NCBI GenBank assembly: GCA_036526135.1
Contig: DATCZA010000011.1
Location: forward strand, 17,570-81,569
Reading direction: 5' to 3'
DNA: 64,000 nucleotides
Source: Pseudomonadales bacterium
GTDB taxonomy: Bacteria; Pseudomonadota; Gammaproteobacteria; Pseudomonadales; Azotimanducaceae
Both the position numbers and the translations under genes were made by a program. The notes beneath the pieces were generated by a model, which was not told where the DNA came from, ran no database searches, and was given only the letters and a program-made list of their open reading frames with translations. This document shows positions 43,662 to 51,851 of the stretch, piece after piece (position 1 is the stretch's first letter; every line of letters begins with the position of its first letter).

Positions 43662-45242
43662 ATGAGCGCCAAGCAGATCGTTTTTGCCCATGACGCAAGA
43701 GCCCGGCTCAACCGGGGCGTCGACACCTTGGCCCGGGCCGTCAACGCCACCTTGGGACCTCGGGGACGTAACGTGCTGCTGAGCAAGACCTGGGGCGCAC
43801 CGACGGTGACCAAGGATGGCGTCACCGTCGCCAAGGACATCGAGCTGAAGGACCGATTCGAGGACATGGGCGCGCGAATCGTCCGCCAGGCGGCAACGCG
43901 GACCGCGGACGAGGCCGGGGACGGCACCACAACGGCCACGGTGATCGCTCACTCTCTCTTTCACTGGGGCCGTCGCGCCATTGCGGCAGGATTCAGCCCC
44001 GTTGAAATCAAGCGCGGCATCGACCTGGGCGTGCGCCTGATGACCGATGCCCTGGACGCGATGGCCGTCGAGTGCGAGGCCGGGGACGACATACGCAAGG
44101 TGGCCACGATTTCTGCCAACGGCGACGAGGCCATCGGCGAGCTCATCGCGCAGGCCATGGAGCAGGTGGGTCGCGAGGGTGTGATTACCGTCAAGGACGG
44201 CACCGGCATCGACGACCAGCTCGAAGTATCTGAGGGCATGCAGTTCGATCAGGGTTACCTCTCACCCTACTTCGTCACCAGCACCGAGACCTATGCTGCC
44301 GAGCTCGATCGGCCGGTGATCCTGCTGCGGGACAAGAAGATCTCCAGCTCCCGCGAACTGCTGCCACTGCTGGAGGCGGTCGCCCGGGCCAACCGCTCGC
44401 TGCTCATCGTCGCCGAGACCGTCGAGGCTGACGCGCTGGCGACCCTGGTCGTCAACAGGCTGCGCGGCCGCCTGAAGGTTGCCGCAGTCAAAGCGCCGGG
44501 CTTCGGTGACCGGCGCAAGGCCATGCTGCAGGACCTGGCGATCCTCACCGGCGGAAAGGTCATCTCCAGCGACGCGGGATTCAGCCTGGAAAAGGTGGCG
44601 CTGGAGGATCTCGGCGAGGCGCAACGGGTATTGCTGACCAAAGGGGACACGACGCTCATCGGGGGTCGCGGCGGGACCGACGCTATCGCCGGGCGCATCT
44701 CGCAGATCCGTCGCGAGATCGAGGAGTCCAAGTCCGAGTACGACCGCGAAAAGCTGCAGGAGCGTCTTGCCAAACTGGCAGGCGGCGTGGCGGTGATCAA
44801 CGTCGGCGGCGCCACGGAAGTCGCCATGAAGGAGAGGAAGATGCGCGTGGACGACGCGCTCGCTGCTACTCGCGCTGCCGTGGAAGAGGGCGTCGTGCCG
44901 GGAGGCGGCGTGGCACTGCTGCGCGCCTCAGCCGAGCTCGCAAAGGCCGCGCCCCGAAACCAGGACCAGGCAAGCGGCGTGGACGCGCTTCGGCGGGCTG
45001 CCGAGGCGCCCCTGCGCCAGATCGTCGCCAACGCCGGTCTGCAGCCAGGCGTGGTGCTGAGAAAGATTCAGTCGGAGCAGGGACACTTCGGGTTCAACGC
45101 GCAGACCGAAACGTTCGGCGACATGCTGGAAATGGGCATACTGGACCCCTGCAAGGTCGTGAAGTCGGCGCTGCACAACGCAGCGTCCGTGGCCGGCATG
45201 ATGATGTCGACGGAGGCGCTGGTCGCAGACGCGCCCCGCTAG
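43662..45242 (+). CDS. groEL: Chaperonin GroEL (Cpn60) paralog, no adjacent groES, no Gly-Met C-terminal tail
   Basis: [40 protein letters not shown].., [20 protein letters not shown]. It ends ..[15 protein letters not shown] without a GGM repeat. The 190 nt upstream contain no groES-sized ORF. Confidence 0.88.
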
Positions 45243-45276
45243 AGAGGGCCGCGCTCGGAACACGGTCGGAACGCCG

Positions 45277-45816
45277 TCATTCCGGTGGGGCCTGATTGCC
45301 GCCGGTCAGCCGTTTGACGTAGAAGACTTTGGCGTCACCTGGCGCGTAGAAGTCCGCGAGCTCGGCCGCGCGCAGGTAGCCGCAGGATTCGTAGAAGCTG
45401 TGCGTGGGCGCGTAATCGGCACGTCCGGAGGTCTCCGCAAAAAGCTGGGCACAGCCCGACGCCGCCGCCAGGCTCTCGGCCGCGGCCAGCAGCCGATGAC
45501 CGACCCCGCGGCCCCGGGCCGCCGCATCCACGGCGATCCAGTAAAGGTCGAAGCTCGAGAGCGTCATCTCTATGGGCCCGCCCCAGCAGACGTACCCGAT
45601 CACCCTTCCGGCGGATTCGGCCACGAGATGCTCGTAGCCGGAGTCCTTACCCTGCAATGCCGCATCGAAGACTTCCAACGCCACAGCGACTTCGGCATCA
45701 CTGAAAAATCCCGTCGAGACCAGCACCGAGGCCACGGGTCCACGGTCGCGTGCCGCCGGCTCCCGCAGATGAACCCAGGCGTCCCCGGGGGGATGCTCTT
45801 TGCAGGGTGAGGTCAT
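45277..45816 (-). CDS. GNAT family N-acetyltransferase
   Basis: Trimmed to ATG 45816 (MTSPCKEH..), 2 nt after the upstream stop. Acetyl-CoA site ..YWIAVDAAARGRGVGHRLLAAAE... Confidence 0.85.
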   Translation of the reverse strand: MTSPCKEHPPGDAWVHLREPAARDRGPVASVLVSTGFFSDAEVAVALEVFDAALQGKDSGYEHLVAESAGRVIGYVCWGGPIEMTLSSFDLYWIAVDAAARGRGVGHRLLAAAESLAAASGCAQLFAETSGRADYAPTHSFYESCGYLRAAELADFYAPGDAKVFYVKRLTGGNQAPPE

Positions 45817-45818
45817 GC

Positions 45819-46805
45819 TCAGTCCGTAGCGGCCGTCCTGACCAGTCGCCCGACCATCTCCTCCGCCGGGATCCCGGCCGCATCGAGCGCGGCAGCGAAG
45901 CCGGCATCGGGCGAGAGACACGGATTCGGGTTGATCTCCAGAATCCAGGGTCGGCCGTCCTCGTCGACCCGGAAGTCGACGCGGGCGCAGCCGCGCATCG
46001 CGAAGCACTCCCAGACCTGCATCCCGAGGGTTCCAAGCAGGTCGAGCAACCGGGCATCGGCTGCGGGGAAGTCGAAACGCCGCGGGGTCGCATGATACTC
46101 GAAGGCGCGGCTCGACCACTTGGCGTCATGCCCGACGATGCGGGGTTTGCCCGGCGCAAACGCCGAGAAGTCGATCTCCGCCGGAGGCAGCACCTGGGCG
46201 GGGCCGGTTTCCGAAGCCAGAAGCGCCACGTTGAACTCACGCCCGGCAACGTAGCGTTCGGCGAACTGCTGCGCGCCACTGTGCTTTCCGCGTGCGCGGA
46301 TGCGCCTGGTGAGCTGCCCGGCATCAGCAACCTGAACGACCGACTGGTCGTCCAGGCCAAGGGAGGCGTGCTCAAAGCGTGCCTTGACGATGTAGCACCC
46401 TGCCCCAGGGAAATCCACCTGGGTCTTCTCACAGACGTACCAGTCCGGCGTCGGCAGGCCGAGCCTGCGCATTCGTTCCTTGGCGCCGACCTTATCGGCG
46501 CTGAGCTCCAGCGCCCGCGATCCCGCTCCGGTGTAGGGGACACCGCGGGCGTCGAGGAGCAGCGTCACCAGCACGGCCAGGCGGTCGGTTCCGCCCAGGG
46601 CCTCGACCAGATTGAAGACGACGTCAGGCCGCTGCTTTGCCAGGGCACCATCGAATCCGGCGAGATCCAGCGTGCAGGGCAACGCGCAGACCTGGTGACC
46701 GGCGCCCACGAGGGCAGTCTCAACCGCTTCGACCTGCTCGAGCACGTCGGCTTCCGCGCTGCCCGCAGCGTCTCCCGGCTTGTTGTAAGCGATGGCTACG
46801 CGCAA
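45819..46805 (-). CDS. ATP-grasp enzyme, D-alanine--D-alanine ligase-like (second copy)
   Basis: ..RVAIAYNKPGD.., ..YIVKARFEHASLGLD.., ..AERYVAGREFNVALL.., ..GCARVDFRVDEDGRPWILEINPNPCLS... I propose the start at TTG 46805. Upstream codons of the 431-aa track ORF overlap the genuine C-terminus of the preceding gene in another frame. Confidence 0.75.
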   Translation of the reverse strand: MRVAIAYNKPGDAAGSAEADVLEQVEAVETALVGAGHQVCALPCTLDLAGFDGALAKQRPDVVFNLVEALGGTDRLAVLVTLLLDARGVPYTGAGSRALELSADKVGAKERMRRLGLPTPDWYVCEKTQVDFPGAGCYIVKARFEHASLGLDDQSVVQVADAGQLTRRIRARGKHSGAQQFAERYVAGREFNVALLASETGPAQVLPPAEIDFSAFAPGKPRIVGHDAKWSSRAFEYHATPRRFDFPAADARLLDLLGTLGMQVWECFAMRGCARVDFRVDEDGRPWILEINPNPCLSPDAGFAAALDAAGIPAEEMVGRLVRTAATD

Positions 46806-47809
46806 CGGTTCATTTCCGTAGCGTCCATGGCAAGACGTTCCGAAGCCGAGTCGACGATGGCACGAATGAGCTCTGCATAAGGCATTCCCACCGCGGTAGC
46901 CAGCATGGGCAGATCGGAATGAGCGGGATGCAGCCCTGCCAGGGGGTTTGCCTCGATGAAATTGGGTTCCCCCGCCGAGTCCGCGCGAAGGTCGATGCGC
47001 CCTCCGTCCCGGGCCCCGAGGGCCCGCCAGGCGCCCAGCGCCGCGGCCTCGGCCCGGGCAACGACGGGATCGGCACGACCATCGACGAGTCGGTACAGCA
47101 CACGGGACTCGCACTCCTCCTTGTTGAGGTACGAGTAGACGTTCGCCTCGGCAGTTGCCAGGAGCTCGATCTCGAGAGTCCCGAGCACCCTGGCATTCGG
47201 GCCAGTGCCCAGAAGGCCGACGGTGAACTCTCTGCCAGGGAGGTACGTCTCGACCAGCACGGGCTGCCGGTAGCGCTCGAGCAGGGCCAGGCTCTGCCGT
47301 TCAAGCTCGGCGGCGCTCATGACGACCGAAGCGGCGCTTGTGCCCTTGCCGGTGCCCTCCCCGATCGGCTTGACGAACAGGGGCGGCTCGAGCGCGACCG
47401 TGGCAACGTCAGCGGCCCGGGCGATGACGGCATGCTGCGGGGTCGCCACACCGGCGTCGGCCACCACCGTCTTGGCCCAGGCCTTGTTCAGGCTCAGAGC
47501 CATGACGGCTGTATCGGCAAACGTCACGGGTATGCCGTAGACCTCCAGAATGGCTGGCACCTGGCTCTCCCGCCCGGGACCGCTGAGCCCCTCGCAGATG
47601 TTGAACACCAGATCCCAACGCTGTCCCGCGGCAAGGTGCTCGATGAGCTCGCGGGCGCAGCCGATGCGCACCGTCTCGTGCCCGAGCTGGCGCAACGCCG
47701 CCTCGATGGCGTCGACGGTGTCGTCGCGGTCGAACTCCGCCGTTTCCTCCTCCGAGTAGCCGGCGGCGAGGTACGCGGAACGCAGATCGTAGGTGATACC
47801 GATGCGCAT
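46796..47809 (-). CDS. ATP-grasp enzyme, D-alanine--D-alanine ligase-like (first copy)
   Basis: MRIGITYDLRSAY.., ..LFVKPIGEGTGKGTS.., ..VETYLPGREFTVGLLG.., ..GGRIDLRADSAGEPNFIEANPLAGL... Confidence 0.85.
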   Translation of the reverse strand: MRIGITYDLRSAYLAAGYSEEETAEFDRDDTVDAIEAALRQLGHETVRIGCARELIEHLAAGQRWDLVFNICEGLSGPGRESQVPAILEVYGIPVTFADTAVMALSLNKAWAKTVVADAGVATPQHAVIARAADVATVALEPPLFVKPIGEGTGKGTSAASVVMSAAELERQSLALLERYRQPVLVETYLPGREFTVGLLGTGPNARVLGTLEIELLATAEANVYSYLNKEECESRVLYRLVDGRADPVVARAEAAALGAWRALGARDGGRIDLRADSAGEPNFIEANPLAGLHPAHSDLPMLATAVGMPYAELIRAIVDSASERLAMDATEMNRCA

Positions 47810-47811
47810 GT

Positions 47812-49212
47812 TCAGTTGGTCCCGGCGCCAGGTTGCTGGGGATCCGGATAGCTGAAGACCCGTCCCTCGAAATTGCGGAGTTTGAGCTCGTCGACGTCTC
47901 TGCCGAGCACGTAGTTCGGCTGAATCGGAATCTTGCCCCCACCGCCGGGCGCATCGATGACGTAGGTCGGCACGGCGTAACCCGTGGTGTGGCCGCGCAG
48001 CCCTTCGATGATCTCCAGGCCCTTCTCAACGGTCGTGCGGAAGTGGGCCGAACCACTGATCGGGTCGCACTGGTACAGGTAGTAGGGCCGCACCCGCATC
48101 TTCAGGAGGCCGTGCACGAGGCGCGTCATCACGCCCACGTCGTCATTCACGCCCTTGAGCAGAACGGTCTGGGAGCCGAGCGGTATACCGGCATCGGCCA
48201 GCCGCTCGCAGGCCTGGGTGGACTCCGGCGTGCATTCCTCCGGGTGCAGGAAGTGCAGGCTCATCCAGAGCGGGTGGTACTTGCGAAGCACCCTGGTCAG
48301 ATCCCGGGTGATTCGTTGCGGGAGCACGGCCGGCATCTTGGTGCCGATGCGGACGAATTCGATGTGCTCTATGGCCCGCAGGTTGGAAAGGATGTAGTCG
48401 AGGTTGTCCTCGCCGAGGGCAAGCGCGTCGCCGCCGGAGACGAGCACGTCGCGAACCTGGGTCGCGCCTCGCAGGTAATCGAACATGGCTTCCAGGCGCG
48501 ATGTCTGGGGGGAGAGCTCCCCATGGCCTACTACCCGCGAGCGAGTGCAGTAGCGGCAGTAGGTGGAACAGAAATCGATTGGCAGCATCAGCACCCGGTC
48601 GGGGTAACGGTGCACGAGCCCCGGCACCGGACTGTGGGCGTCCTCCCCGAGCGGGTCGTCGGCTTCCCCCGGCAGGCGAAGAAATTCGTTCTGCGAGGGT
48701 ATGACCGTCCGCCGCAGGGCATGCTGCGGATCAACGGGGTCGAGCAGACTCATGTAGTAGGGCGTGATCCCCACGGGCAGCATCATGCCGCCAACGGTGA
48801 GCGCTGCGCGCTCATCGTCGGACAGTTCGAGCACGCGCTCGATCTGGGCGAGATTCTTGAAGCGGTGCCGGGACTGCCAGCGCCAATCGTTCCACTCCGC
48901 ATCGGAAACGTCCGGGAAATGGCGGATCCGGAACTCGCGTGTGCGGGGGTTGCCGCGCCCTGCGGTCCGCAGCCGGACTACCTTCGCCCGACGCTGCACG
49001 GACTCGACGGCCTTCGATGCAACGGATGTCGAGTCGGTGGACTTTGCAGGGATGACTTTGATGACACGCGCGTCGTCGGCTGGCGCGGTACGGGAGGTGA
49101 TTGGCTTGTTGGATCGGGTATTCGAATGGGGTGGATGCAGGCTGAGGGCTAGATTCTGGCCGTGAATACCTCCCGGAGGCTCCTCTTCGACCGGTGGGGG
49201 GGACTTTTTCAT
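47812..49212 (-). CDS. KamA family radical SAM aminomutase (lysine 2,3-aminomutase-like)
   Basis: CSTYCRYCTRS (CxxxCxxC radical-SAM cluster), ..LLKGVNDD.., YLYQCDPISG and VIDAPGGGGKIPI (PLP-Lys motif). It has a ~100-aa N-terminal extension relative to the minimal KamA core. Confidence 0.9.
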   Translation of the reverse strand: MKKSPPPVEEEPPGGIHGQNLALSLHPPHSNTRSNKPITSRTAPADDARVIKVIPAKSTDSTSVASKAVESVQRRAKVVRLRTAGRGNPRTREFRIRHFPDVSDAEWNDWRWQSRHRFKNLAQIERVLELSDDERAALTVGGMMLPVGITPYYMSLLDPVDPQHALRRTVIPSQNEFLRLPGEADDPLGEDAHSPVPGLVHRYPDRVLMLPIDFCSTYCRYCTRSRVVGHGELSPQTSRLEAMFDYLRGATQVRDVLVSGGDALALGEDNLDYILSNLRAIEHIEFVRIGTKMPAVLPQRITRDLTRVLRKYHPLWMSLHFLHPEECTPESTQACERLADAGIPLGSQTVLLKGVNDDVGVMTRLVHGLLKMRVRPYYLYQCDPISGSAHFRTTVEKGLEIIEGLRGHTTGYAVPTYVIDAPGGGGKIPIQPNYVLGRDVDELKLRNFEGRVFSYPDPQQPGAGTN

Positions 49213-49420
49213 GCGCCTTGGATCTCCTGTGGCGGTCCAACGAAAAACGACAGCCCCTCGGAGCTGCCGAACGGCGCGTAAGTTAAGGCAAACGGGGTTG
49301 AATGCAATAGCCGTGCATCACATCAACCGGACTTTTTTTCATGTAGGCAAACGCCGCCGCGAGCCCATTGTATTTGCCGGATTTTTGGCGCTTACTGCGG
49401 ATCCCCGCCGGTCCCACGCA

Positions 49421-50794
49421 ATGTCTGCGGACCGGCTTTTCTATGACGTTCTTCAGACATTTCAAGGGTCGCGCATGCGCAGCCTGAAAGATCTTCTGGT
49501 GGTCATCCCCCATAGCGGGATACGCATTCCGCCGGAGATACCGAGTTCGAGCCTCACCGAAGAGTTTCCGGCACTGCTTGCCAACGTGGACTGGCACACC
49601 GACCGCCTGTACGACTTTACCGACCTGCTCGAGAATCAGCAGATCGTCTTCCCGTACTGCAGCCTCCTGCTCGAGGCCAATCGCGACCCCGAGTTGCTGG
49701 ACGAGTCGATACCCCTGCGCGACGTCAACGGCAAAGCCGTCTACCGGCCCGGCTGTGAGCCGAGCCTGGACCTGCGCCGCCACCTGTCCTACAAGTACCT
49801 GCGCGGCTTTCATCAGAAGATCAGCGCGAGCATCTCCGCGGGCGCCGAGTTTCTCCTGGACGGCCACTCCACCGTGGTCGCCAGGGGCGTGGCAGCAAAT
49901 CAGATCGATCTCATGAACTTTCAGCATACGCAGCGCGACGGCGAGCCGAAGCTGTACGCGCCGGCGATCTACGCCGAGACATACGCCGAGGCCCTGCAGA
50001 AACGGCTGCCCGAGGTCCACGTCACCGTCAACGCCTCGGAGTACTATCAGGTTCACGGTCACGTCTGTGCCGCCCACTCGGTCAACGGTATCGGCAGAGC
50101 CGGGCAGCTGGCGCCCGCGCTGATTCAGGAAACTTCTCAGGGCCTTTACATGCACCCCGACGGGACGCCGGACGTGCTGGCGGTAGATCACCTGCGCCGG
50201 GTCTTTGCCGAGGCCCTGCGCACAACGCTGGACACCGTCCGACGGTTCACAGCGCCGGCGCAGATCATCGATCTGCATGGCCAACGCCAGACGTTCGATT
50301 TCGACTGCGGGGTGAAAGCGCTGCAGATGGTGCTGGCCTACTACGGCGTCGAGGAGCGCGAAGACAAACTGCTCAAAGCGCTCGCCGCCGACCCCGAACT
50401 CGGCACGCCGCTGGCCAGGATGATCGAGTTCGCTGAGTCCAGGGGCTTCGAGGTCAAGGCCGGAACGGGCTGGTCGCTGGATGACGTGAAGCACTATCTC
50501 GACCGCAACTGCCCGGTCATCGTCCTGGTCCAAGCCTGGGCCGACGGCTACCTCTCGCTGGCCGAATGGCGACGCAACTTCGACGACGGGCACTACGTCG
50601 TGGTGGTGGGCTACGACCGTCAGAATCTCTACTTCGAGGACCCCGCCTCGTTTCACCGCACGTGGCTGAAGGAAAACGAATTCCTCGCCCGCTGGCACGA
50701 CCAGGATCCGGTTACCGGGGAAAAGCTCCTCCAGGCCGGCATGGTGCTGCTGGGCAGGGAGCCGGTGGGCAAGGGCCTGCGGCCCATGTACTGA
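49421..50794 (+). CDS. Fusion protein: N-formylglutamate amidohydrolase-like domain + C39-like (papain-fold) cysteine peptidase domain
   Basis: N-terminal half ..LLVVIPHSGIRIPPE..DWHTDRLY..CSLLLEANRDP..FLLDGHST.. is FGase-like. C-terminal half ..QRQTFDFDCGVKALQMVLAYYG...DDGHYVVVVGYD.. has the Cys/His arrangement of C39-like peptidases. Start uncertain (ATG 49421 or 49475). Confidence 0.7.
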   Translation: MSADRLFYDVLQTFQGSRMRSLKDLLVVIPHSGIRIPPEIPSSSLTEEFPALLANVDWHTDRLYDFTDLLENQQIVFPYCSLLLEANRDPELLDESIPLRDVNGKAVYRPGCEPSLDLRRHLSYKYLRGFHQKISASISAGAEFLLDGHSTVVARGVAANQIDLMNFQHTQRDGEPKLYAPAIYAETYAEALQKRLPEVHVTVNASEYYQVHGHVCAAHSVNGIGRAGQLAPALIQETSQGLYMHPDGTPDVLAVDHLRRVFAEALRTTLDTVRRFTAPAQIIDLHGQRQTFDFDCGVKALQMVLAYYGVEEREDKLLKALAADPELGTPLARMIEFAESRGFEVKAGTGWSLDDVKHYLDRNCPVIVLVQAWADGYLSLAEWRRNFDDGHYVVVVGYDRQNLYFEDPASFHRTWLKENEFLARWHDQDPVTGEKLLQAGMVLLGREPVGKGLRPMY

Positions 50795-51095
50795 CCAGAC
50801 CGCTTTGGCTCATCACCGAAGGCAGCCGCGCCAGGCATCTCCACCGCAGGCGCCCGGATCGACAAGCACGAGCACGCCCACGACTACTTTTTCCTGTTGA
50901 ACGTTGCCGGCATTCGGCGACCGGTGGCACGTTCTTCGTCGACGTTCCAGACGCCGGGACCATCAACTTTTTCACCAGGCCGCTGTCTCACTGACGACAA
51001 CGTCGGGCCGGGTCGGTCAGAGACGGTCTGATCGAGACGGTCGTCCCGACACGGTCCGTTTGACATGGACGCGCTTTCCGAATGAACTTCAACAT

Positions 51096-51851
51096 ATGAT
51101 CGATGACTATTCCGACCGGCATCACCGATTCGAAGGCTGCTTCAACTTTCGCGACATCGGCGGCTACCCGACGACCGAGGGTCGCACGGTGCGATGGGGC
51201 CGCTACTATCGGGCGGGTCGCCAGGACCGCATGTCCGAAGCCGATGTTGCCAGGGCTCGCGATCTGGGCATCGCCACGCAGATCGACCTGCGCAAGCCCG
51301 ACGAGGTCCGAGAGCAGGGCCGGGGTCCTTTGGAGGAGATGGGCGTTGCCTACCACCACATCCCCGTCATCCCGGAGGGCGGCAGCGATGCATTGAGCCG
51401 CCTGGTGGGGGACACCGGCATCTCCGGACGTCGCTACCTCGGCTATCTGGAGTTCGGGCCCGAGCCGTGGCTTGCGATGTTCGAGATATTCGCCGACGCC
51501 GGCCGTCACCCCATCGTGCTGCACTGCACTGCAGGCAAGGACCGCACGGGGGTCTCCACCGCCTTTCTCCTATCCGTGCTGGGCGTGGACCGCGCTCTGA
51601 TCGAGGCAGACTACATTCTCACCAACCGCGACGTGGGCCGGCAGGCGGATTTCATCGAGCGCACCGTCGGCTACCCGGAGGGCATGGATCGGGCAGCGAT
51701 GGTGCACGCCGCAGGGGTGCCCGAGACTGCCATCGGCGACTTCCTGGACGGCCTCGAGGCGCGCTGGGGCGGACCGCTGGGGTACCTTCGCAGCATCGGC
51801 GTGAGCGAGGCCACCATGGACGACGTGCGCCGGGAGTTCCTTGAGGACTGA
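51096..51851 (+). CDS. Protein-tyrosine/dual-specificity phosphatase (Y_phosphatase3-like)
   Basis: CX5R P-loop HCTAGKDRTG. N-terminal ..FNFRDIGGY...RWGRYYRAG.. is typical of this family. Trimmed to ATG 51096. Confidence 0.85.
   Translation: MIDDYSDRHHRFEGCFNFRDIGGYPTTEGRTVRWGRYYRAGRQDRMSEADVARARDLGIATQIDLRKPDEVREQGRGPLEEMGVAYHHIPVIPEGGSDALSRLVGDTGISGRRYLGYLEFGPEPWLAMFEIFADAGRHPIVLHCTAGKDRTGVSTAFLLSVLGVDRALIEADYILTNRDVGRQADFIERTVGYPEGMDRAAMVHAAGVPETAIGDFLDGLEARWGGPLGYLRSIGVSEATMDDVRREFLED

Follow-up and report, generated by a model that had tools for sequence, protein, structure and literature searches.

A candidate beta-lysine-derivatising operon with two Ddl-like ligases in a sediment gammaproteobacterium and its relatives across bacterial phyla

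The window analysed here is a stretch of 64,000 nt from a Pseudomonadales genome (contig DATCZA010000011.1). Positions 45277-49212 carry, on the minus strand, four packed genes encoding a KamA-family radical-SAM aminomutase (KamA), two ATP-grasp ligases resembling D-alanine--D-alanine ligase (Ddl), here called AG1 and AG2, and an acetyltransferase of the GNAT family. We interpret this gene set as the minimal four-gene form of a widespread beta-lysine-derivatising cassette whose expression would be gated at the start of kamA, and we give this reading a probability of about 0.6. The evidence supports an operon distinct from the AblA/AblB osmolyte route, from EpmB, which acts in the modification of elongation factor P (EF-P), and from the cell-wall Ddl, and the pathway put forward by a sequence-only reading of this DNA holds as a candidate. 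Compared with known systems, the cassette likely represents a widespread new variant of beta-lysine pathways, in which two new ligases of the Ddl fold accompany an acetyltransferase. Full-text literature searches returned no description of the cassette or its product, in line with the earlier remark that no characterised product is known for this gene set.

Operon layout

The four genes are arranged as follows.

47812..49212, minus strand: kamA, ATG at 49212 to TGA at 47812, 466 aa
46796..47809, minus strand: AG1 (ATP-grasp), ATG at 47809 to TAG at 46796, 337 aa
45819..46805, minus strand: AG2 (ATP-grasp), TTG at 46805 to TGA at 45819, 328 aa
45277..45816, minus strand: GNAT, ATG at 45816 to TGA at 45277, 179 aa

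The coordinates of the open reading frames (ORFs) confirm the tight packing described earlier, with a 2-nt gap between kamA and AG1, a 10-nt overlap between AG1 and AG2 and a 2-nt gap between AG2 and GNAT. The TTG start of AG2 at 46805 agrees with the N-termini of orthologues such as MQVAIVHD and VHIAIVHD. Such junctions indicate that the four genes are translationally coupled.

The aminomutase

KamA combines the domains Radical_SAM and LAM_C and exceeds the cut-off of the KamA-family model TIGR00238 (326.6 bits against 199.2). The sole solved relative is the lysine 2,3-aminomutase (LAM) of Clostridium, PDB 2A5H, matched at 473 bits. In this alignment, the motif CSTYCRYCTR falls on Cys125/129/132 (CxxxCxxC) and on Arg134, which is the carboxylate-binding residue of LAM. 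YQCD falls on Asp293, and VIDAPGGGGK covers Asp330 as well as Lys337, the lysine that holds pyridoxal phosphate (PLP). The two aspartates, whose numbering the sequence-only reading had given correctly, hold the epsilon-ammonium group of lysine in LAM, and their positions are occupied by Lys/Asn in glutamate 2,3-aminomutase. Both are invariant among 28 cassette KamAs. The ranking of NCBIfam models is headed by lysine 2,3-aminomutase (477.4 bits), followed by glutamate aminomutase (416), arginine aminomutase (358) and EpmB (215). The retained aspartates point to lysine rather than glutamate as the expected substrate, as had been proposed. Ten KamAs of the cassette, spanning at least seven phyla, have lysine 2,3-aminomutase as their best family model.

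The placement among TIGRFAM models puts KamA outside the EpmB clade, with 215 bits on TIGR03821 against a cut-off of 369.3. The genome encodes its own true EpmB elsewhere (444 bits against the same cut-off) as well as EpmA (288 bits). Among cassette-bearing genomes of other phyla, EpmA was found in 3/7 and a true EpmB in 2/7, which shows that the cassette does not depend on beta-lysylation of EF-P. A role in EF-P modification was rejected in view of the separate EpmA/EpmB in this genome and of cassettes in genomes lacking EpmA.

Compared with 2A5H, cassette KamAs carry an N-terminal extension of 40-260 residues, about 94 aa long in the window protein. Residues 1-84 are predicted to be disordered, with no secondary structure and a predicted local distance difference test (pLDDT) score below 50 in the AlphaFold2 model, where the core scores above 90.

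Two Ddl-like ligases with altered pockets

AG1 and AG2 both match PF07478 (Dala_Dala_lig_C), and their only matches among solved structures are D-Ala-D-Ala and D-Ala-D-Lac ligases (E 1e-20 for AG1, E 1e-16 for AG2). The AlphaFold2 model of AG1 (pLDDT 90.8) retrieved Ddl structures as all of its top 50 PDB fold matches, at TM-scores of 0.67-0.75 normalised to the query length and 0.70-0.85 normalised to the target length. On the curated Ddl model, AG1 and AG2 score 143.9 and 94.9 bits, under the cut-off of 243. A genuine Ddl is encoded on another contig, C79 (281.6 bits against a cut-off of 245.65).

Specificity was mapped by placing 81 AG1 and 65 AG2 sequences on the residue numbering of E. 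coli DdlB, whose reference sequence was cross-checked against an alignment of residues 56-304. The residues contacting ATP, Mg and the transition state (K97, K144, E180, E187, K215, R255, D257, E270 and N272) are invariant in both ligases. The substrate positions read as follows.

DdlB E68: R in AG1, variable in AG2
DdlB S150: T in AG1, A in AG2
DdlB Y210: Y in AG1, V in AG2
DdlB Y216: E (E231) in AG1, W in AG2
DdlB G276: G in AG1, C in AG2
DdlB H280: H in AG1, D in AG2
DdlB S281: S in AG1, A in AG2
DdlB L282: D (D299) in AG1, G in AG2

At the D-Ala site proper, S150, Y216 and S281/L282 become T, E and S/D in AG1, and A, W and A/G in AG2. Each of the AG1 exchanges Y216 to E231, L282 to D299, S150 to T and E68 to R is invariant over the 81 sequences. 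The two additional invariant acidic residues in the AG1 pocket would suit a substrate that bears one more ammonium group. AG1 and AG2 are thus best described as active-looking Ddl-fold ligases with putatively new specificities. With a true Ddl on a different contig and the D-Ala specificity positions replaced in both proteins, neither is the housekeeping Ddl, which is in favour of the earlier reading.

The acetyltransferase and a missing deacetylase

The GNAT protein matches PF13508 (Acetyltransf_7; 50.9 bits against 27) and PF00583 (Acetyltransf_1; 45.2 against 20.7). Its nearest named family is RimI, yet the score of 47.1 bits stays under the equivalog cut-off of 86.4. It does not match TIGR03827, the AblB model, and the whole genome contains no match to this model at E<=0.001; the B. 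subtilis and M. acetivorans controls scored above the cut-off. Over its full length the protein aligns with PDB 2R7H at 91 bits, an entry deposited as 'putative D-alanine N-acetyltransferase of GNAT family'. The literature searched, including that on Desulfovibrio G20, yielded no functional work on the 2R7H protein.

Many relatives of the cassette encode a deacetylase of the HDAC type fused to a GNAT domain. Neither the fusion nor a cassette-type HDAC was found in this genome, which has only a generic HDAC with 31-35% identity. The window therefore holds the minimal four-gene form, and since the deacetylase gene is missing, the product probably stays acetylated.

Conservation and distribution of the cassette

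Homologues of AG1 number in the thousands, at 57-95% identity, and across phyla AG1 is as conserved (57-70% identity) as KamA. A scan of species-representative genomes identified at least 564 loci encoding an AG1 relative, and 80 loci were compared. The order KamA-AG1-AG2-GNAT is the rule, and the genes stand side by side in most of the 80 loci, so that their grouping is not accidental. The extended arrangement KamA-(CxxCxxCC)-AG1-AG2-(GNAT-HDAC)-GNAT recurs in Planctomycetota, Desulfobacterota, Gammaproteobacteria, Acidobacteriota, Fibrobacterota, Krumholzibacteriota and Bacteroidota. The first optional insert, a protein of about 175 aa with a CxxCxxCC motif, lies between KamA and AG1 in Planctomycetes. 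The second, the GNAT-HDAC fusion of about 580 aa, follows AG2 and precedes the terminal GNAT, to which it is joined in Desulfosarcina variabilis and free-standing in the related locus L118. Once out-of-frame shadow ORFs were set aside, no further neighbour family was shared by more than about 7 of the 80 loci.

AG1 is the constant partner of KamA. Genomes labelled Kuenenia have only KamA-CxxCxxCC-AG1, and one of them lacks an AG2 orthologue anywhere; KamA and AG1 therefore form a self-sufficient core. Within the class to which the window belongs, AG1 was present in 14/300 evenly sampled Gammaproteobacteria genomes. Twelve of 13 further Gammaproteobacteria had the kamA-first cassette, and no kamA was found beside AG1 in the thirteenth. 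Such a patchy distribution would be as expected for an accessory trait.

Bacteroidota also harbour a second type of cassette, arranged AG1-AG2-GNAT-KamA (loci L143, L144, L149, L151-L153 and L163-L165). Its ligases are only 26-39% identical to AG1 and AG2 of the window. Its KamA starts with MELWQ, lacks the WNDWRW region and the N-terminal extension, and reads YLYQAD instead of YLYQCD in the five loci where the motif was found. Other Bacteroidota loci (L139, L142, L146, L148, L150 and L155) combine an AG1-like ligase, with the N-terminus ...GEPPDADAENEPPETVD..., and a distant KamA-family protein without GGGGK. It seems that aminomutases of the KamA type are repeatedly paired with Ddl-like ligases.

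Between 94 and 97% of the words sampled from window positions 45277-49212 occur in soil, sediment, marine and estuary metagenomes from twelve studies, and the stretch is also present in metatranscriptomes of marine sediment and seawater. This identifies the host as a gammaproteobacterium that is widespread in sediments. Contigs from RNA runs bridge the KamA/AG1, AG1/AG2 and AG2/GNAT junctions.

A conserved Pro-Pro motif at the start of kamA

The disordered extension of KamA carries an acidic Pro-Pro motif close to its start.

49171..49188, minus strand: E-E-E-P-P-G motif, kamA codons 9-14 (GAA GAG GAG CCT CCG GGA), residues E9-E10-E11-P12-P13-G14
49179..49177, minus strand: first Pro codon of the motif, CCT, kamA codon 12

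The general form (D/E)(D/E)(E/D)-P-P-(G/S/D/A) is found in 61/64 cassette KamAs at codons ~9-30, with codon 23 as the median across loci. Conservation extends to a synonymous position. In 51/57 unique sequences the first Pro codon ends in T (1.78 bits), whereas the information at the surrounding third positions is about 0 bits and the second Pro codon varies freely. In a separate test set of ten Gammaproteobacteria, E-P-P was present in 10/10 and CCT in 8/10. Over all type-1 (kamA-first) loci, CCT occupies the site in 61/70 unique sequences, with p ~1e-27 against a generous background of 25%. The background in the genome itself is lower, with CCT making up 11.6-12.9%; where two Pro codons adjoin, the first is CCT in 11.6%.

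Several published observations on translation bear on such a site. The junction CC[C/U]-C is prone to +1 frameshifting and is avoided by genomes at the first Pro of Pro-Pro pairs, and the output of CadC is tuned by rare Pro codons (PMC8129111). EF-P touches the E-site codon and prefers G at its first position (PMC12856214); the E-site codon at the kamA motif is GAN, i.e., with G first. N-terminal sequences rich in Asp, Glu and Pro lead to premature abortion of translation, with the risk being highest near the N-terminus (bioRxiv 10.1101/2021.02.02.429294). EttA relieves pausing where acidic residues occur among the first 30 positions of a protein (PMC11282234). The kamA motif looks like a translational gate that would depend on EF-P, ABCF proteins or Mg.

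Bacteroidota allow a comparison between gene orders. Non-cassette LAM genes of this phylum, used as a control, encode a 22-residue N-terminus and a C-tail of about 93 residues, and have no motif. The KamA of the second cassette type, with kamA last, has neither extension nor motif. The kamA-first cassette L126 carries EEDEPPSG. As the motif is present only where kamA comes first, it tracks the kamA-first position rather than the chemistry. This in turn argues against a covalent carrier arm and favours a gate that acts on translation where the operon begins.

Other functions considered for the site were rejected. CCUCC could act as an anti-Shine-Dalgarno sequence with GGAGG, but no partner was found at any fixed distance. 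A structural role of CCUCC was dismissed on ensemble folds, in which the element is not unusually paired (median percentile 0.44), and RNA structure at the window leader on a fold worse than that of shuffled sequences (z = +1.76). A programmed +1 frameshift leading to a second product was discarded because the +1 frame stops after 2-172 codons without a conserved peptide. Slippage at the motif is possible as a route to loss of the product.

The window kamA contains a second polyproline run, S-P-P-P (TCC CCC CCA CCG) at codons 4-7 (window 49194-49203, minus strand), which includes a CCC-C junction. It lies five codons ahead of E-P-P-G, which places two stall-prone sites within the first 13 kamA codons. 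Two relatives have a split kamA: in L009:3844-5287 the frame changes in the linker and in L026:4340-5456 in the core, neither at the CCU-CCN site. These splits may be assembly errors or pseudogenes.

Alternative explanations

The alternative that fares best, though unlikely, is a system modifying proteins or peptides. Beta-lysine would be ligated onto a translation factor, a ribosomal protein or a ribosomal peptide, and the RimI-like GNAT would acetylate the same target. The kinship of the GNAT with RimI is in keeping with this, as are the action of some ATP-grasp enzymes (RimK, LysX, TTL) on proteins, the known occurrence of beta-lysine on EF-P and the lack of a conserved exporter nearby. However, AG1 and AG2 are of the Ddl type and not of the RimK/LysX type, and no target or precursor gene is conserved in the 80 loci. 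Complete and separate EpmA/EpmB exist here and in other carriers, the cassette also occurs in genomes without EpmA, and the RimI score is well under its cut-off (47 against 86.4 bits).

Less probable still is a variant of the AblA/AblB route, in which an aminomutase and an acetyltransferase together make N-epsilon-acetyl-beta-lysine. The logic of the two enzymes is the same, the organism is found in marine and estuarine sediments, and the gene set here includes no deacetylase. Yet the GNAT fails the AblB model and the genome lacks AblB, while the controls match. AG1, moreover, is conserved like KamA (57-70% across phyla) and always accompanies it, and KamA-AG1 is found without any GNAT. The earlier proposal of a product other than the plain AblA/AblB osmolyte agrees with a GNAT that is not AblB-type.

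The acidic E-P-P tail of KamA could alternatively serve as a LysW-like covalent carrier arm for the ligases. A conserved motif at the end of a long disordered tether and the LysW/LysX precedent would suit such a function, which we nevertheless consider very improbable. The Bacteroidota cassettes of the AG1-AG2-GNAT-KamA type employ the same enzyme families with a KamA that lacks the extension and the motif. Asp293 and Asp330 imply free lysine as the substrate, the ligases are Ddl-type rather than LysX-type, and a role at the protein level leaves the fixed synonymous CCU unexplained. A housekeeping or catabolic origin, with cell-wall Ddl paralogues beside a lysine-fermentation aminomutase, is hardly credible: databases do label AG1 homologues 'D-alanine--D-alanine ligase' and KamA opens lysine fermentation in clostridia, but the true Ddl lies elsewhere, AG1 and AG2 fall far short of the Ddl cut-off (144 and 95 bits, with 243 required) and have the D-Ala site residues replaced, kamDE, kdd, kce and kal genes are absent nearby, and synteny and translational coupling are fixed across phyla.

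Proposed pathway and its significance

We suggest that the beta-lysine-derivatising cassette operates in four steps. The active-site residues strongly suggest that KamA would first turn free L-lysine into beta-lysine by radical-SAM/PLP chemistry. AG1 might then form a first amide bond via an acyl-phosphate, using beta-lysine itself or another diamine that suits the acidic pocket at the Tyr216 and Leu282 positions. AG2, with a different invariant pocket, could add a second amide bond, and the GNAT would acetylate the remaining amino group. In many relatives, the cassette-specific HDAC-type deacetylase could strip the acetyl group again. The end product would be a small N-acetylated di- or tri-amide of beta-lysine (a peptide or polycation conjugate), with compatible solute and organic polycation as the leading guesses for its role. 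Output of the operon would be set within the first 10-30 codons of kamA, where the acidic Pro-Pro motif contains a normally avoided CCU-C junction. Read-through of the motif would depend on EF-P, on ABCF factors and on Mg2+ or polycation levels.

Several points weigh against this interpretation. KamA reaches 477.4 bits on TIGR03820, under the curated equivalog cut-off of 525.4, because the match stops at model position 363; it spans positions 3-363 of 417, and the C-terminal tail of LAM is missing. Being under the cut-off and without the tail, KamA is not certain to have lysine-aminomutase activity. Nine further cassette KamAs from other phyla show the same shortfall (441-500 bits), which suggests that cassette KamAs are a distinct LAM-like subfamily and not a strict AblA equivalog. 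The bonds formed, the order of steps, the co-substrates and the position of acetylation (by acetyl or a longer acyl) are guesses. No exporter, regulator or target gene is conserved near the 80 loci, and a purely osmotic role is made less likely by the many carriers that originate from freshwater, soil or groundwater. Coverage in the metatranscriptomes is low and even, about 5x, and DNA carry-over is possible. At the motif, CCC, the more slippery codon, is rare (4/70), so that frameshifting itself may not be what matters. The idea of a gate draws on statistics of the sequences and on work in E. coli rather than on data from these organisms.

A bolder proposal is that the cassette produces a new widespread class of beta-lysine amides, serving as organic polycations or as solutes, and is autoregulated at the ribosome. 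A checkpoint for pausing and frame maintenance at (D/E)(D/E)E-CCU-CCN-(G/S), dependent on EF-P, on ABCF factors and on Mg2+ or polycations, would then control production; we regard this combination as doubtful. In eukaryotes, translational control that senses polyamines is known from the +1 frameshift of antizyme and from the PPW pause in AZIN1. If true, the kamA checkpoint would be the bacterial counterpart of such control by antizyme and AZIN1.

The cassette is kept at 57-83% protein identity in at least seven phyla, including abundant marine-sediment Gammaproteobacteria, Planctomycetes, anammox bacteria and sulfate reducers. That so widespread a cassette has no described product suggests a gap in what is understood of physiology shared among anaerobes. 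Once identified, the product would give a function to thousands of genes mislabelled 'D-alanine--D-alanine ligase', and AG1 and AG2 would bring two new specificities to the ATP-grasp toolbox for beta-amino-acid amides. The fixed synonymous codon in the kamA motif offers a simple test case for translational control conserved across phyla.

Leader and neighbouring genes

Upstream of kamA, two putative regulatory elements and a divergent gene were annotated.

49243..49269, minus strand: leader hairpin with a 9-bp stem followed by U5, about 30 nt ahead of the kamA start, from a scan for terminator-like structures
49280..49307, minus strand: weak sigma-70-like promoter, TTGCAT-16 nt-TAACTT, inferred and below the consensus-scan threshold
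49421..50794, plus strand: fusion of an N-formylglutamate amidohydrolase-like domain (FGase) and a C39-like peptidase, PF05013 with PF03412/PF13529

A hairpin with a U-tract (U5-6) is found at the same place in L003, L004, L005, L012 and L118, with four different stem sequences. It was absent from the other phyla compared and was seen in this gammaproteobacterial lineage only. The MAFFT-based alifold of the hairpin was uninformative, and its support comes from individual folds. The hairpin may be an attenuator or a stabilising 5' structure. The promoter elements TTGC(A/T)T and TAA are conserved in five aligned related leaders and in L118, at a spacing of N16/17. Leaders of the lineage share the order of promoter-like element, hairpin with U-tract, ribosome-binding site and ATG. 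A sigma-54 promoter was not supported, with only a TTGCA-like element conserved and no GG at -24. An Rfam E-value scan of positions 44800-51200 detected no riboswitch or known RNA element. An ORF of 19 codons (MKKSPVDVMHGYCIQPRLP*; window 49283-49342, minus strand) precedes kamA and shares sequence with the promoter-like element. It opens with MKKSP like KamA (ATGAAAAAAAGTCC vs ATGAAAAAGTCC) and may have been left over from a duplication of the start region.

The true start of the FGase-C39 gene is probably 49475. The family has 278 matches at E<=1e-10, with proteins of about 437-446 aa, in Pseudomonadales, Syntrophales/Smithella, Desulfobacterales, Myxococcota and Thermoplasmatota; in related genomes it is encoded at L118:8001-9320 and L117:8001-9314. 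The gene adjoins the cassette, divergently, only here and in L118. It was rejected as a cassette member, as it is not adjacent in L115, L116, L117 or any of the other 90-plus loci. It is not next to the cassette in a Pseudomonadales, a Desulfobacterales or a Thermoplasmatota genome. Hydrolysis of the cassette product by FGase-C39 in this deacetylase-less lineage is speculation. On an archaeal contig, FGase-C39 adjoins a LysW/LysX cluster for lysine biosynthesis. The link to lysine in both settings may be meaningful or a coincidence.

Comparison with known systems

The closest known system is AblA/AblB, which shares with the cassette a LAM-type aminomutase with the same lysine-binding residues, a GNAT in the same operon and beta-lysine as the committed intermediate. 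The cassette differs in having a 179-aa RimI-like or 2R7H-like GNAT instead of AblB, and two inserted Ddl-like ATP-grasp ligases as its most conserved partners. Its KamA has an N-terminal extension and no C-terminal tail, and many cassettes include an HDAC-type deacetylase. DdlB (PDB 2DLN, 1IOV) has the same ATP-grasp fold of three domains as AG1 and AG2, and every residue for ATP, Mg and the transition state in common with them. Given these retained catalytic residues, the mechanism of both ligases should therefore also run via an acyl-phosphate. Unlike DdlB, they are only 21-28% identical to it and under all curated cut-offs, and E68, S150, Y210, Y216, G276, H280, S281 and L282 are replaced family-specifically and invariantly.

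A broader parallel is provided by small N-acetylated dipeptides. Ngg/AsnO leads to N-acetylglutaminylglutamine amide and NAT8L/RIMKLA to N-acetylaspartylglutamate, both by the logic of GNAT acetylation and ATP-grasp ligation. However, these systems use other ATP-grasp subfamilies, no aminomutase and alpha-amino-acid substrates, and the likeness is one of logic only. For the motif, the nearest precedents are polyproline control by EF-P of CadC and Mg2+ sensing by MgtL (PMC8129111, PMC11282234, bioRxiv 10.1101/2021.02.02.429294), which likewise rely on a short acidic and/or Pro-Pro N-terminal sequence. In systems of the CadC/MgtL type, selected rare Pro codons set the output via pausing or destabilisation of the ribosome. 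The kamA element, a putative gate, differs in that it lies inside the coding region of the enzyme itself at the head of a biosynthetic operon, and in that it is kept across at least seven phyla with CCU fixed at the first Pro.

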